Source of the DNA: Escherichia coli
GTDB lineage: Bacteria > Pseudomonadota > Gammaproteobacteria > Enterobacterales > Enterobacteriaceae
Assembly (NCBI RefSeq): GCF_003334255.1
Contig: NZ_QOWU01000003.1
Length of the DNA: 64,000 nucleotides
Strand: one strand, 5' to 3'
Shown: one piece after another, positions 13,544 to 57,100 of the stretch
How the letters are laid out: each line of letters opens with the position of its first letter
How positions within the stretch are numbered: position 1 is the stretch's first letter
Notes under the pieces: model-generated
The model's input: only the letters and a program-made list of their open reading frames with translations
What the model was told of the DNA's origin: nothing
Database searches by the model: none
Made by a program: the position numbers and the translations under genes

Positions 13544-13744
13544 TGTAATATCCTTTCTCTTTCTTAGACAGTACCTTACGGCACTGGTGTTAATACCCGA
13601 TCTTCTGCGCATCCTCGCGACTAATGACAACCCTAACCCAGCTCTATGTGGGTAAAGCCTCTCATTAGCCGCGCGAACCTCTGCAACGGAAGATCATTCA
13701 TAGCAACAATACATTAGTTTCCAGTGAATTGCTGCCGTCAGCTT

Positions 13745-13774
13745 GAAAAAAGGGGCCACTCAGGCCCCCTTTTC
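13745..13774 (-). terminator. Rho-independent terminator after rpsO, inside the rpsO-pnp leader region
   Basis: Minus strand: GGGGGCCTGAGTGGCCCC hairpin followed by TTTTTT. Confidence 0.7.
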
Positions 13775-27375: not shown

Positions 27376-29310
27376 TTACTTGTCGCCTAACTGCTCTGAC
27401 ATGGTGTTACCCGGGTTCGGCGTACGCGGTTCATCAACCGGACGAGGAGCCTTTGGACTACCATTGTCGCCAGAATTGTTAGAAGCGCCTGGTTCTTCCC
27501 AGCCCGCTGGCGGACGTACATCGCGACGTGCCATCAGGTCATCAATCTGCGGTGCGTCGATAGTCTCATATTTCATGAGAGCATCTTTCATCGCATGCAG
27601 AATATCCATATTGTCGGTCAGAAGCTGACGCGCACGATTATAGTTACGCTCAATCAGTGCTTTCACTTCCTGGTCGATGATACGTGCAGTTTCATCGGAC
27701 ATATGTTTCGCTTTCGCTACGCTACGGCCGAGGAACACTTCACCTTCTTCTTCCGCGTACAGCAGTGGACCCAATTTCTCAGAGAAGCCCCACTGAGTCA
27801 CCATGTTACGTGCCAGGTTGGTCGCAACTTTAATATCGTTGGACGCACCGGTAGATACATGTTCCGGCCCGTAGATGATCTCTTCTGCCAGACGACCACC
27901 GTACAGCGTAGAAATCTGGCTTTCCAGTTTCTGACGGCTGGCGCTGATTGCGTCGCCCTCAGGCAAGAAGAAAGTCACACCCAGCGCACGACCGCGTGGG
28001 ATAATCGTCACTTTGTGCACCGGATCGTGTTCCGGCACCAGGCGACCGATAATCGCATGACCCGCTTCGTGGTAAGCCGTCGATTCTTTCTGCGCTTCCG
28101 TCATCACCATGGAGCGACGTTCCGCACCCATCATGATTTTGTCTTTCGCTTTCTCGAACTCAACCATCGACACAACGCGTTTGTTGCCACGAGCAGCGAA
28201 CAGTGCCGCTTCGTTCACCAGGTTCGCCAGGTCAGCACCGGAGAAACCAGGAGTACCACGGGCAATGATTGCCGCGTCGATATCGGGTGCCAATGGTACG
28301 CGACGCATGTGAACTTTCAGGATCTGCTCACGACCGCGAACATCTGGCAAGCCGACCACAACCTGACGGTCGAAACGGCCAGGACGCAGCAGGGCCGGGT
28401 CGAGAACGTCCGGACGGTTAGTCGCGGCGATAACGATGATACCTTCGTTACCTTCGAAGCCATCCATCTCAACCAGCATCTGGTTCAGAGTCTGTTCACG
28501 TTCATCGTGACCACCGCCCAGACCAGCGCCACGCTGGCGGCCTACGGCGTCGATTTCATCGATAAAGATGATGCACGGTGCCGCTTTCTTCGCCTGTTCG
28601 AACATGTCACGAACACGGGATGCACCCACACCGACGAACATTTCTACGAAGTCAGAACCGGAGATAGTAAAGAACGGAACTTTCGCTTCGCCTGCAATCG
28701 CTTTCGCCAGCAGCGTTTTACCGGTACCCGGAGGACCGACCATCAAGACGCCTTTCGGGATCTTACCGCCGAGTTTCTGGAAGCGGCTCGGCTCGCGCAG
28801 ATACTCAACCAGTTCAGCAACTTCTTCTTTTGCTTCGTCGCAGCCCGCAACGTCAGCAAAGGTCGTTTTGATCTGATCTTCCGTCAGCATGCGCGCTTTG
28901 CTCTTACCAAACGACATGGCACCTTTGCCACCGCCGCCCTGCATTTGACGCATGAAGAAGATCCAGACACCAATCAGCAACAGCATCGGGAACCAGGAGA
29001 TGAAGATAGAAGCCAGCAGGCTTGGTTCTTCAGGCGGTTCACCGACAACCTTGACGTTCTTGGTCAACAGGTTATCCAGTAATTTCGGATCCTGAACCGG
29101 AATGTAAGTGGTATAACGGTTACTATCTTTCTTGGTAACGTTGATTTCACGTCCGTTGATACGCGCTTCACGAACCTGGTCGTTATTGACCTCTTGTAGG
29201 AAGGTAGAGTAATCCACCTTACGGCCATTAGACTCGCTGGGCCCAAAGCTCTGGAATACTGACATCAGCACAACGGCAATGACCAGCCAGAGTATTAGGT
29301 TTTTCGCCAT
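27376..29310 (-). CDS. ftsH: ATP-dependent zinc metalloprotease FtsH (HflB), 644 aa (647 if the upstream ATG is used)
   Basis: ORF track 27376..29319; Walker A GPPGTGKT, second region of homology, zinc site HEAGHA. Confidence 0.94.
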
Positions 29311-29409
29311 GTCACTCAAGGGATTAACCTCTTATTACAACTGTGTTAAAAACAGCGTCAGGATACTCTATATCCAGCATCTTTCAAACTTTCGTCTGAA
29401 ATCTCCCGG

Positions 29410-30039
29410 TTAGGGTTTACGCCCGGTCGCTACAATATACACTTCCCGCGAACGTGCACGAGAAGAGTCCGGCTTACGAACTTTGACCTTCGTAAACAGG
29501 GAGCGAATTTCCCTTAGATACTCATCGAAACCTTCGCCCTGGAACACCTTCACTACAAAACTGCCACCTGGCGCTAATACATCACGACACATTTCTAGCG
29601 CCAGTTCCACCAGATACATGGCACGGGGGATATCCACCGCCGGTGTTCCGCTCATGTTTGGTGCCATATCGGACATGACAACCTGGACTTTGCTGTCGCC
29701 AACGCGCTCCAGCAGTGCTTTCATCACCAGTTCATCACGAAAATCGCCCTGAAGAAAGTCCACACCAACGATAGGATCCATAGGTAAAAGATCGCAAGCG
29801 ATGATGCGGCCTTTGCCGCCAATTTGGGTGACCACATATTGTGACCAACCACCCGGAGCAGCACCAAGGTCGACAACCGTCATTCCCGGTTTAAAGAGTT
29901 TGTCACTTTGCTGTATTTCATCAAGTTTAAACCAGGCACGGGAACGTAACCCCTTTTTCTGTGCCTGTTGAACATATTTATCGCTAAAGTGTTCCTGAAG
30001 CCAGCGGCTGGAGCTGGCAGAACGCTTCTTACCTGTCAT
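29410..30039 (-). CDS. rlmE: 23S rRNA 2-prime-O-ribose U2552 methyltransferase RlmE (RrmJ/FtsJ), 209 aa
   Basis: ORF track; SAM-binding [13 protein letters not shown]. Confidence 0.93.
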
Positions 30040-30164
30040 TTAACTTTCCCATGGGGATAACTCATCGTAACCAATTGCATAAATTTTTACGCGCCTATTT
30101 GGTGATATATGGGAGATGGCGGTAGAATGACCCGTTTTCAATCCCAACGTAAGCAAAAAATACG

Positions 30165-30458
30165 ATGAATCTGAGTACTAAACAAAAACAGCACCTGAAA
30201 GGTCTGGCACATCCGCTCAAGCCAGTTGTTCTGCTTGGCAGTAATGGTTTGACCGAAGGGGTGCTGGCCGAGATTGAACAAGCGTTAGAGCACCATGAAC
30301 TCATCAAGGTGAAAATCGCCACCGAAGATCGCGAAACTAAAACCTTGATCGTGGAAGCTATCGTGCGCGAAACCGGCGCCTGTAATGTACAGGTCATCGG
30401 TAAAACGCTGGTGCTTTATCGCCCAACTAAAGAACGTAAAATCTCGCTGCCACGCTAA
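30165..30458 (+). CDS. yhbY: CRS1/YhbY-type RNA-binding (CRM domain) protein, 97 aa
   Basis: ORF track; MNLSTKQKQHLKGLAHPLKPVVLLGSNGLTEGV. Confidence 0.9.
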   Translation: MNLSTKQKQHLKGLAHPLKPVVLLGSNGLTEGVLAEIEQALEHHELIKVKIATEDRETKTLIVEAIVRETGACNVQVIGKTLVLYRPTKERKISLPR

Positions 30459-30546
30459 GATTATCCTAAAGTTACACACATTTGCTGTGTAAAACGAGGG
30501 GTTTTCCGCAGGCAGGAGAGCAAAATGCCACGCTCTGTTCGTTGAT

Positions 30547-30572
30547 AAAAGGCCGCATAGCGGCCTTTTTCC
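30547..30572. terminator. Bidirectional hairpin terminator between convergent yhbY and greA
   Basis: aaaaggccgcatagcggccttttt: GC stem flanked by A-run and T-run. Confidence 0.65.
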
Positions 30573-30613
30573 TTTCTTTACAATACATCAACATCTTGAG
30601 TATTGGGTAATTC

Positions 30614-31090
<477 letters not shown>

Positions 31091-31183
31091 TTGTTATACC
31101 TCTTGAATATTCCTGATGGGGCAAGTCTTCACCCACCCCGGCTGTTCGGCCTGCCCGGCATAACTCCTCACCGGGACCAGAAG

Positions 31184-31219
31184 CAAAAAAATACCGACCC
31201 GGGTACAAGTCCCAGGTCA
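31184..31219 (-). terminator. graL: Intrinsic terminator/attenuator in the greA leader (3-prime end of the GraL leader RNA)
   Basis: Minus strand: gacctgggacttgtacccgggtc hairpin followed by GGTATTTTTTT, about 95 nt upstream of the greA ATG. Confidence 0.5.
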
Positions 31220-31337
31220 GCTACAATTCACATTTTGATAGTCATTTTACCCTGAAGTTCCCGAAGGGTCATCGTTTACTTTATAGGGCGTTGCGCCGTA
31301 GTATGACGGCTCGATTCCAGGTTGTTAGCGCGAGATT

Positions 31338-32771
31338 ATGCGATTTTCCAGATTTATCATCGGATTGACCAGCTGTATAGCGTTCAGTGTTCAGGCCGCA
31401 AATGTTGATGAGTACATTACTCAACTCCCCGCTGGTGCCAACCTTGCCCTGATGGTGCAAAAAGTCGGCGCGTCGGCCCCCGCTATTGATTACCACAGTC
31501 AGCAGATGGCGCTGCCTGCCAGTACCCAGAAAGTGATTACTGCGCTGGCGGCGTTGATTCAACTCGGCCCCGATTTTCGTTTTACCACGACGCTTGAAAC
31601 CAAAGGCAATGTGGAAAACGGCGTACTTAAGGGTGACTTAGTGGCGCGATTTGGTGCCGATCCGACGTTAAAACGTCAGGATATTCGCAATATGGTCGCG
31701 ACTTTGAAAAAATCTGGCGTCAACCAAATCGATGGCAATGTGTTGATAGATACCTCCATTTTCGCCAGCCACGATAAAGCCCCCGGCTGGCCATGGAATG
31801 ACATGACACAATGCTTTAGCGCTCCGCCTGCCGCCGCCATAGTTGACCGCAACTGTTTCTCCGTCTCGCTCTACAGTGCCCCAAAGCCTGGTGATATGGC
31901 TTTTATACGCGTGGCATCTTATTACCCCGTTACGATGTTCAGCCAGGTACGCACCCTCCCCCGTGGTTCTGCCGAAGCGCAATACTGCGAACTGGATGTG
32001 GTGCCAGGCGACCTGAACCGCTTTACGCTGACGGGATGCCTGCCACAACGTTCTGAGCCGCTCCCGTTGGCTTTTGCCGTGCAGGATGGAGCCAGCTATG
32101 CCGGTGCAATTCTGAAAGATGAGTTAAAACAGGCGGGTATCACCTGGAGCGGAACACTGCTGCGCCAGACTCAGGTTAACGAACCTGGAACGGTAGTTGC
32201 CAGTAAACAGTCGGCCCCGCTGCACGATCTGCTTAAGATTATGCTGAAAAAGTCGGACAACATGATCGCCGATACGGTTTTCCGCATGATAGGCCATGCG
32301 CGCTTCAATGTGCCTGGAACATGGCGGGCCGGGTCGGACGCCGTGCGTCAGATCCTGCGCCAGCAAGCCGGTGTCGATATTGGAAACACCATTATTGCCG
32401 ATGGTTCAGGGCTTTCGCGGCATAACCTGATTGCCCCCGCCACCATGATGCAGGTGCTGCAATACATTGCCCAACACGACAATGAACTTAACTTTATCTC
32501 CATGCTGCCGCTGGCGGGCTATGACGGCTCTTTGCAGTACCGTGCAGGTCTGCATCAGGCGGGCGTGGATGGAAAAGTCTCAGCGAAAACCGGTTCGTTG
32601 CAGGGGGTATATAACCTGGCGGGATTCATTACCACAGCGAGCGGGCAACGAATGGCGTTTGTGCAATATCTTTCTGGCTATGCAGTAGAACCTGCGGATC
32701 AGCGTAATCGCCGTATTCCGTTAGTGCGTTTTGAAAGCCGTTTGTATAAAGATATTTATCAGAACAATTAG
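31338..32771 (+). CDS. dacB: D-alanyl-D-alanine carboxypeptidase/endopeptidase PBP4 (DacB), 477 aa
   Basis: ORF track; signal peptide MRFSRFIIGLTSCIAFSVQA; SxxK motif in ASTQKV. Confidence 0.94.
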   Translation: MRFSRFIIGLTSCIAFSVQAANVDEYITQLPAGANLALMVQKVGASAPAIDYHSQQMALPASTQKVITALAALIQLGPDFRFTTTLETKGNVENGVLKGDLVARFGADPTLKRQDIRNMVATLKKSGVNQIDGNVLIDTSIFASHDKAPGWPWNDMTQCFSAPPAAAIVDRNCFSVSLYSAPKPGDMAFIRVASYYPVTMFSQVRTLPRGSAEAQYCELDVVPGDLNRFTLTGCLPQRSEPLPLAFAVQDGASYAGAILKDELKQAGITWSGTLLRQTQVNEPGTVVASKQSAPLHDLLKIMLKKSDNMIADTVFRMIGHARFNVPGTWRAGSDAVRQILRQQAGVDIGNTIIADGSGLSRHNLIAPATMMQVLQYIAQHDNELNFISMLPLAGYDGSLQYRAGLHQAGVDGKVSAKTGSLQGVYNLAGFITTASGQRMAFVQYLSGYAVEPADQRNRRIPLVRFESRLYKDIYQNN

Positions 32772-55451: not shown

Positions 55452-56426
55452 TTACGTTATAAATTGTGTGAGAAATGCGGAATTCCCCTCAACGACCCAC
55501 TCCGTTGGAGGTAGCCACGGACGTCCCAGCGCCGATCCCTGTACGCCATGTTCATTCAGATAGCGATCCAGCTCGACCATTCCCGTCCATCGATTTTCGC
55601 ACCACAGCGGAGCAAGCAGCGTCGGGCGACGGGCGCTGGCGGAAATGCGGTGGTAGATCACTTCCGGTGGCGTATGGCGAATCATTTCTCCGGCAGTGAG
55701 CGTGTAATCCTCCAGTTCAATACCGTTCAAACGCCCCGCTTCCCAGGCTTTCGCCATAATGCTGCCTTTCACAATATGCAGCGGATGCAGCTTTATGCCG
55801 TCCACGCCGGTTTCAACCACTCGCTCCAGCGTTTGCAAACATTCAGCCTGCCCTTCGCCAGGCAGGCCGACAATTAAGTGGGAACACACCTTCAGCCCGC
55901 GCTGACGTGCCAGCTGGGTTGTACGCTGATAACAGGCAAAATCATGGCCGCGGTTGATGCGATGCAGTGTTTTGTCGTGGGCGGTTTGTAGCCCCAGCTC
56001 CAGCCACACTTCGTAACCCTGGTCCTTATATTCGCAAAGCAGATCCAGCACCGCATCCGGCACGCAGTCCGGGCGGGTACCCACACACAAACCGACAATA
56101 TTGGCCTGGCTCACCGCCTGCTGATACATAGAACGCAGCACCTGAACTTCCGCAAAGGTGCTGGTATACGCCTGAAAGTAGGCCAGATAGCGTTTAGCGC
56201 GGTTAACTAAATTCGCCTGGTGCGCCAGTTGCTCGGCAATGGAACGATGCTGCTGCGCTTCATCGGCAAACGAGGCAACATTACAGAATGTGCAGCCACC
56301 ACGCCCGATGGTACCGTCACGGTTAGGGCAGCTAAAACCGCCGTGCAGCGTCAGCTTATGCACCTTTTGCCCATAACGACGGGTGAGATCACCACCAAAC
56401 ATATTGACTAATTTCTGTAACTGCAT
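55452..56426 (-). CDS. yhcC: Radical-SAM family protein YhcC (start uncertain)
   Basis: ORF track 55452..56459; TIGR01212-like; start provisionally placed at MQLQKLVNMFGG; alternative starts at the upstream ATG or at MFGG. Confidence 0.75.
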   Translation of the reverse strand: MQLQKLVNMFGGDLTRRYGQKVHKLTLHGGFSCPNRDGTIGRGGCTFCNVASFADEAQQHRSIAEQLAHQANLVNRAKRYLAYFQAYTSTFAEVQVLRSMYQQAVSQANIVGLCVGTRPDCVPDAVLDLLCEYKDQGYEVWLELGLQTAHDKTLHRINRGHDFACYQRTTQLARQRGLKVCSHLIVGLPGEGQAECLQTLERVVETGVDGIKLHPLHIVKGSIMAKAWEAGRLNGIELEDYTLTAGEMIRHTPPEVIYHRISASARRPTLLAPLWCENRWTGMVELDRYLNEHGVQGSALGRPWLPPTEWVVEGNSAFLTQFIT

Positions 56427-57100
56427 AATCTGATAGACCGCGCCTTGAAAAGAGGCCAAAGCCTGCCATTTTTAGCTCAATTCGGCGATGACCTGGATCA
56501 ATCGTCCCGGCCTGCTTTTATCAACTGCATAATCAATCAAAATTACCGAAATTTCATGCATAATCACATAAATCACTTTTGCTTATCTTGTGTCAGATTT
56601 TTTTATCTCCTGATGGATTTTAGGCAAAAACAGTAGCATGAAACGTCATTACCAATTAAGGCAGTATAAAATGCTGGTTTTGTCGTCAGTTCAAGGCAGG
56701 ATAAGGGTTAACACACCTTTATGACAGTCAGGAATTGACTGTTTCTCTAACGACTTCCCTTTTAGCCTTAAAGATAAAATCCATTTTAATTTCAGTCATT
56801 TAATAAAGAATTTTGCGCTAAAGCACATTTCTGTACCAATAAGCTTGCCATTTGACCTGTATCAGCTTTCCCGATAAGTTGGAAATCCGCTGGAAGCTTT
56901 CTGGATGAGCAGCCTGCTCATCATATTTATGCAGTAATTGAGATCCCCTCTTCACCGTATTAACCGATGCGAAAAGGACAACAAGGGGGCGAATGCGAGG
57001 CGCGCGTATGACACGCAAACCCCGTCGCCACGCTCTTTCTGTGCCCGTGCGCAGCGGTTCGGAAGTGGGGTTCCCGCAGAGCCTGGGGGAGGTTCACGAT

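Follow-up and report, generated by a model that had tools for sequence, protein, structure and literature searches.

Does the short spacer between rlmE and the divergent gene yhbY in Escherichia coli hold a heat-shock promoter that drives rlmE and ftsH, and is that all it holds? A sequence-only reading of a 64,000-nt stretch of DNA (the window) had pointed, by eye, to a sigma-32-like signature here. The window is part of the E. coli chromosome: every one of the 5,426 complete E. coli genomes carries a 601-bp region around the site with at least 99% identity, annotated there as rlmE / yhbY. The genes follow one another as glmM, folP, ftsH, rlmE, yhbY, greA and dacB; of these, yhbY and dacB are on the plus strand and the others on the minus strand. 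Positions 30040-30164 coincide with the whole 125-bp spacer, flanked by the start codons of rlmE (30039, minus strand) and yhbY (30165, plus strand). Adding 3,297,625 to a window position gives the K-12 coordinate in NC_000913.3; for the older K-12 coordinates of some published maps, we assume an offset to NC_000913.3 of roughly 1,976 bp, due to assembly revisions. The genes of immediate concern are as follows.

27376-29310, minus strand: ftsH (hflB) coding sequence, an open reading frame, with the K-12 annotation 3325001-3326935 mapped by the offset; second gene of the operon
29410-30039, minus strand: rlmE (ftsJ/rrmJ) coding sequence, from open reading frame and annotation; first gene after the candidate promoter
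30165-30458, plus strand: yhbY coding sequence, from open reading frame and annotation; the divergent neighbor

The string quoted in the earlier reading, GATTGAAAACGGGTCATTCTACCGCCATCTCCCATATATCACC, was found inside the rlmE/yhbY spacer, on the minus strand from 30143 to 30101. Its two proposed elements, a TTGAAA-like -35 and a CCATnT-like -10, were both located as aTTGAAA and CGCCATCT, 14 nt apart. They lie on the rlmE-ftsH sense strand, and the -10 region ends 74 nt before the rlmE ATG.

30136-30142, minus strand: -35 element aTTGAAA, matching CTTGAAA at six of seven positions in the consensus scan
30122-30135, minus strand: 14-nt spacer ACGGGTCATTCTAC, which holds the complement of a plus-strand TAGAAT
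30114-30121, minus strand: -10 region CGCCATCT, an extended -10 'CG' followed by the core CCATCT, matching CCCCATnT at six of seven positions

Compared with CTTGAAA-N(12-16)-CCCCATnT, whose -35 element is the one given for sigma-32 in PMC10216364 and PMC9866376, the rlmE site agrees at 12 of 14 specified positions, and the CCAT core of its -10 (30119-30116, minus strand) is intact. Canonical E. coli sigma-32 promoters (dnaK P1, groS, htpG, grpE, lon, hslV, ibpA, clpB and clpP) have a common architecture of CTTGAAA, 13-14 nt and CCCCATnT. The rlmE site differs from them at its two mismatches, having A where they have C or G ahead of TTGAAA, and G in place of one C of the extended -10. Its spacing of 14 nt, counted from heptamer to octamer, is also found in three of these nine K-12 promoters, the other six having 13 nt, and the -10 region of htpG, CCCCATCTctccca, is much like that of rlmE, CGCCATCTcccata.

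How often would such a match arise by chance? Agreement at 12 or more of the 14 consensus positions occurs at three places in the window, and dinucleotide shuffles lead us to expect about two per 128 kb (both strands); when a CCAT core is also required of 12/14 matches, about one is expected per shuffled window. Since consensus counting is not significant window-wide, we used in its place a position weight matrix (PWM) derived from independent promoters. This log-odds matrix was trained on nine K-12 sigma-32 promoters (dnaK P1, groS, hslV, ibpA, clpP, lon, htpG, clpB and grpE), located in K-12 upstream regions, which score 12-14 out of 14 against the consensus and have spacers of 13-14 nt; htpX was omitted because its best match was ambiguous. 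The matrix scan, which the sequence-only reading had named as a check, gave the rlmE site 15.2 bits. This score ranks second among ~128,000 window positions and falls within the leave-one-out range of the canonical promoters (14.7-25.6 bits), at its low end.

These scores bear on the possibility that the match is a coincidence without function. PWM matches of at least 15.15 bits are expected by chance ~0.77 times per shuffled 64-kb window, which, together with the ~2 consensus matches expected at that scale, would favor coincidence, as would two other equally strong PWM matches in the window, at 13742 and 56444. Sequence alone is thus insufficient, because about 0.8 matches this strong are expected by chance per window. 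However, the rlmE site has the right position and orientation: only 7.5e-4 PWM matches are expected in the 125-nt spacer on one strand, and the corresponding expectation for a 12/14 consensus match on the rlmE-sense strand of the spacer is ~0.001. The rlmE sequence is a good, not outstanding, sigma-32 site, and it is non-random by virtue of its location.

The two other high-scoring positions deserve a brief description. The top PWM match of the window, at 13742-13772 (plus strand; 16.0 bits), does not contain a CCAT core and consists of a G+C-rich hairpin followed by T's (aaaaggggccactcaggcccccttt), an arrangement that is terminator-like, not promoter-like. A sigma-32-like site of equal strength to that of rlmE, CTTGAAA-N13-TGCCATTT, is present at 56444-56471 (plus strand; 15.1 bits) and may be a chance match. 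It lies at the 5' edge of a minus-strand open reading frame (55452-56459), ~520 nt upstream of a large plus-strand open reading frame that begins at 56993; by the gene order of K-12, these two flanking frames are probably yhcC and gltB.

Is the rlmE site maintained in other species? With RlmE as the probe, we collected orthologous loci from 80 different species of Enterobacterales, ranging from Escherichia to Proteus, Photorhabdus, Xenorhabdus, Edwardsiella, Budvicia and Zophobihabitans. The exact arrangement ATTGAAA-N14-CGCCATCT is found in 76 of the 80 species and the 14-nt spacer in all 80; TTGAAA and every column of CGCCATCT are 99-100% conserved. In the alignment of rlmE upstream regions, the whole block from GGATTGAAAACGG to CATTCTACCGCCATCTC (30144-30113) is near-invariant. 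Its conservation extends into the spacer, where columns 30129-30122 (CATTCTAC) are 88-100% conserved, about as strongly as the boxes, and 30131-30130 vary. The -10 and the rlmE ATG are separated by anywhere between 53 and 132 nt across species, most of the leader diverges in sequence and length, and the promoter block keeps a fixed position relative to yhbY, not to rlmE. A motif that is near-invariant across a bacterial order and lies in a spacer to which sigma-32 binding has been published is not what coincidence would produce. Conservation and binding data together effectively refute a chance match, which we regard as vanishingly unlikely.

Conservation of this kind could also stem from an overlapping coding sequence. 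A 100-aa open reading frame, oloz4542 (30095-30397, minus strand), runs antisense to yhbY and through the motif in the window, and it has been reported to be transcribed, translated and tagged in EHEC (PMC9927249). Coding constraint would require that the frame be kept, but an ATG-initiated open reading frame of at least 90 aa covers the -10 in only 13 of 79 orthologous loci, and 36 of the 79 have none at all. The frame is already cut to 57 aa in the E. coli representative, and full-length frames are found only in Escherichia/Shigella (PMC9927249). Moreover, the conservation comes in solid blocks and does not have 3-nt periodicity. As the frame is not maintained outside Escherichia, we rejected coding constraint from oloz4542 as an explanation and give it next to no probability.

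Published binding data place the sigma-32 holoenzyme at this spacer. When reconstituted RpoH holoenzyme was used in genomic SELEX, the rrmJ/yhbY spacer gave a peak of intensity 14.1, among the high-level peaks that follow the strongest one (ybeD) (Shimada et al., 2017, PMC5493296). In vivo, the sigma-32 ChIP-chip region SigH_324 (3325009-3326545) covers the spacer, as does the RNA polymerase peak RNAP_1542 (3325546-3325896); the sigma-70 region SigD_1318 (3325708-3326245) overlaps it as well but is not specific (Cho et al., 2014, PMC3923258 supplement). These regions are in the older K-12 coordinates, in which the rrmJ/yhbY spacer lies at ~3325832 according to the table in PMC5493296. Both SELEX and ChIP-chip have a resolution that reaches the spacer but not the motif within it.

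Reports on regulation point in the same direction. The earlier statement that ftsH is heat-shock regulated agrees with published accounts that put the ftsJ/rlmE-ftsH operon under sigma-32 and heat-shock control. PMC6414753, crediting Bugl et al. (2000), describes ftsJ/rlmE as being in an operon with ftsH and strongly upregulated on heat shock via sigma-32, and PMC5493296 credits the RpoH-dependent promoter here to Herman et al. (1995), a paper whose title, as cited there, states that HflB governs sigma 32 degradation. RpoH also induces ftsH in Pseudomonas aeruginosa, along with its neighbors folP and glmM (PMC9866376). A full-text literature search with the promoter sequence itself returned no match. 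The documented sigma-32 promoter of E. coli ftsJ(rrmJ/rlmE)-hflB(ftsH) shares organism, spacer, operon and orientation with the site described here and is the same object.

The sigma-70 ChIP region that overlaps the spacer raises the question of whether the site is instead a housekeeping (sigma-70 or sigma-38) promoter that shares the TTGAAA -35, with the heat induction of the operon coming from elsewhere. TTGAAA does match the sigma-70 -35 at five of six positions. However, the rlmE-sense strand has no acceptable TATAAT-like hexamer 16-18 nt downstream of TTGAAA, and the sequence kept at the -10 position is CCGCCATCT, the sigma-32 signature. A generic sigma-70 and terminator scan of 29300-30700, at thresholds that also miss the weak yhbY candidate described below, detected nothing in the spacer, leaving a housekeeping promoter on the rlmE-sense strand unsupported. 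The sigma-70 ChIP signal can be explained by that candidate together with an upstream sigma-70 promoter, whose start sites map just beyond the yhbY stop codon.

30461-30462, minus strand: start sites of the upstream sigma-70 promoter from Cappable-seq (EDL933 4158211/4158212, PMC9927249; EDL933 offset 4,127,750)

By RT-PCR, transcription at 37 °C was seen to pass through yhbY, in antisense, and on into rlmE-ftsH (PMC9927249). Taken together, these observations make a housekeeping promoter in place of a sigma-32 promoter extremely unlikely. We conclude with high confidence that this element serves the E. coli rlmE(ftsJ/rrmJ)-ftsH(hflB) operon as its heat-shock promoter, dependent on sigma-32 (RpoH). 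This conclusion draws on the sequence match, on conservation and on published holoenzyme binding in vitro and in vivo, with heat induction taken from the literature and a transcription start that we infer. The original proposal of a sigma-32 promoter for rlmE-ftsH, divergent from yhbY, is therefore borne out by PWM and consensus scans, conservation, SELEX, ChIP-chip and the literature. The promoter is already known and ordinary, and nothing is shown to differ from the documented one.

The strong conservation of the spacer between the two boxes calls for a further explanation, as sigma-32 recognition alone would not obviously require it. A candidate promoter for yhbY has its -10 on the strand complementary to this spacer; its elements are as follows.

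30123-30128, plus strand: candidate sigma-70 -10 hexamer TAGAAT for yhbY, inside the sigma-32 spacer, identified from conservation
30100-30105, plus strand: weak candidate yhbY -35 TGGTGA, matching TTGACA at three of six positions with 17-nt spacing; it overlaps the predicted rlmE +1 region

Among 79 orthologues, the hexamer is TAGAAT in 75, TACAAT in three and TATAAT in one. T1, A2 and T6 are kept in all 79 species and variation is confined to hexamer position 3, the pattern expected of a -10 element; in the orthologues the hexamer precedes the yhbY ATG by 34-40 nt. The candidate -35 is less uniform: TGGyGA is present in 68 of the 79 and is below the threshold of the generic sigma-70 scan. 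TGGTGA-N17-TAGAAT is thus a plausible sigma-70 promoter of yhbY, judged from its sequence and conservation. The rlmE spacer is apparently invariant across species because it houses this divergent -10 element, and the overlapping candidate yhbY promoter, not sigma-32 recognition, may account for some of the block's conservation.

Could the invariant block then be solely a sigma-70 promoter of yhbY, with the sigma-32-like match a coincidental by-product? The conservation pattern of TAGAAT and its distance from the yhbY ATG would be expected in that case, as would the fixed position of the block relative to yhbY and a sigma-70 ChIP region covering the spacer area (PMC3923258). However, sigma-32 holoenzyme has been found to bind the spacer both in vitro and in vivo, and the literature assigns a heat-shock promoter to the rlmE-ftsH operon. 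Furthermore, a yhbY promoter alone cannot explain the block, because positions 30113-30122, which would fall in its own spacer, are 91-100% conserved and spell the sigma-32 -10. We therefore consider a yhbY promoter on its own very unlikely. The two readings are compatible, not exclusive, and we think that both promoters are present.

The simplest reading would be two interdigitated divergent promoters, whose -10 elements lie on opposite strands with 1 bp between them. The polymerase footprints would overlap almost entirely, so the geometry suggests that only one of the two promoters would be occupied at a time. If the yhbY promoter is real, the arrangement resembles other overlapping back-to-back bacterial promoters in that each -35 lies downstream of the other's start. 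Unlike generic overlapping divergent promoters, however, the rlmE promoter and the candidate yhbY promoter would use different sigma factors (32 and 70). A tentative idea is that the invariant 45-bp block acts as a two-sigma switch: sigma-32 polymerase would exclude sigma-70 polymerase, lowering yhbY and raising rlmE-ftsH transcription, and a 5' stem-loop would set the stability of the sigma-32 transcript. Such a switch, which may be suggested by the geometry of conservation and by folding statistics, seems to us an unlikely but not negligible possibility.

Where would the sigma-32 transcript begin, and does its leader have any distinctive structure? We placed the start by reference to dnaK P1, using the scaffold numbering in the sigma-32 open-complex structure paper (PMC10216364).

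30106, minus strand: predicted transcription start A (K-12 NC_000913.3 3,327,731), which we infer with an uncertainty of ~2 nt
30040-30106, minus strand: predicted rlmE leader, 67 nt, varying in sequence and length between genera
30070-30103, minus strand: candidate 5'-proximal stem-loop, with outer stem CCAA/UUGG and inner stem GCGUAA/UUAUGC

A30106 is 8 nt past the last T of the -10 octamer, matching the dnaK P1 numbering, and T30107, A30106 and T30105 are 96-100% conserved in the 80 loci, after a variable 5-nt gap. The inner hairpin comes from a fold of the window leader and the outer CCAA/UUGG stem from a fold of L001, an E. coli locus that is nearly identical. RNAalifold on 20 leaders identified no helix in a common register, so we folded each sequence individually and compared it with shuffles. 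For 73 distinct orthologous leaders, which are not independent phylogenetically, the median folding z of the first 45 nt was -1.08, compared with 0.09 for a coding control; the whole rlmE leader was not more stable than shuffles (z = -0.17). The 5' arm, AUCACCAAAU, is conserved, and its downstream pairing partner changes in sequence and register between genera. We regard a 5'-proximal stem-loop of the predicted transcript, possibly mRNA-stabilizing, as a lead only.

We also considered an RNA thermometer in the rlmE leader and rejected it. There is no conserved helix that sequesters the Shine-Dalgarno (SD) sequence and no consensus pairing at the SD; only a 3-4 bp CCC/GGG mini-hairpin occurs, in a subset of genera. 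An Rfam scan of 29000-31400 found no known RNA family in the spacer or the leader. The same scan recovered the greA leader (RF01769, 127.5 bits) at 31186-31307 on the minus strand, a known element upstream of greA; the other Rfam matches in this interval were sub-threshold and terminator-like only.

Several other signals were observed nearby. Between the convergent genes yhbY and greA, at 30547-30569, is a perfect 10-bp hairpin flanked by T-runs and readable on both strands; from its sequence, it looks like a bidirectional intrinsic terminator. On the minus strand, a terminator-like hairpin is found near the rlmE 3' end (29442-29465), and a sigma-70-like TTGAAA-N16-TATCCT occurs in the rlmE-ftsH spacer (29360-29387). 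Together, this promoter-like site and hairpin could allow some expression of ftsH independently of rlmE.

How, then, does the promoter function? RNA polymerase with sigma-32 recognizes aTTGAAA (30142-30136) and CGCCATCT (30121-30114), 14 nt apart, and is predicted to start at approximately A30106, generating a 67-nt leader ahead of rlmE. Accumulation of sigma-32 on heat shock or protein misfolding then raises rlmE and ftsH transcription. The operon is also fed by another promoter: at 37 °C, basal expression can come from the upstream sigma-70 promoter by way of transcription antisense through yhbY, with a presumed share for each of the two. Sigma-32 control of rlmE-ftsH is established, and degradation of sigma-32 by FtsH is a textbook feedback loop. 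Because FtsH/HflB degrades sigma-32, the rlmE-ftsH promoter is one arm of a negative feedback loop that acts in the heat-shock response.

As a discovery, this promoter carries little weight. Its value lies in calibration: a consensus match spotted by eye was, in this case, correct. At the 64-kb scale the match is not statistically distinctive, and it convinces only once genomic position, phylogenetic footprinting and the published binding data are added. What the analysis may contribute to a well-studied locus is a pair of small, testable additions, a possible interlock with the yhbY promoter and a conserved leader stem-loop. If the two-sigma switch were true, heat shock would lower transcription of yhbY, a ribosome-assembly gene.
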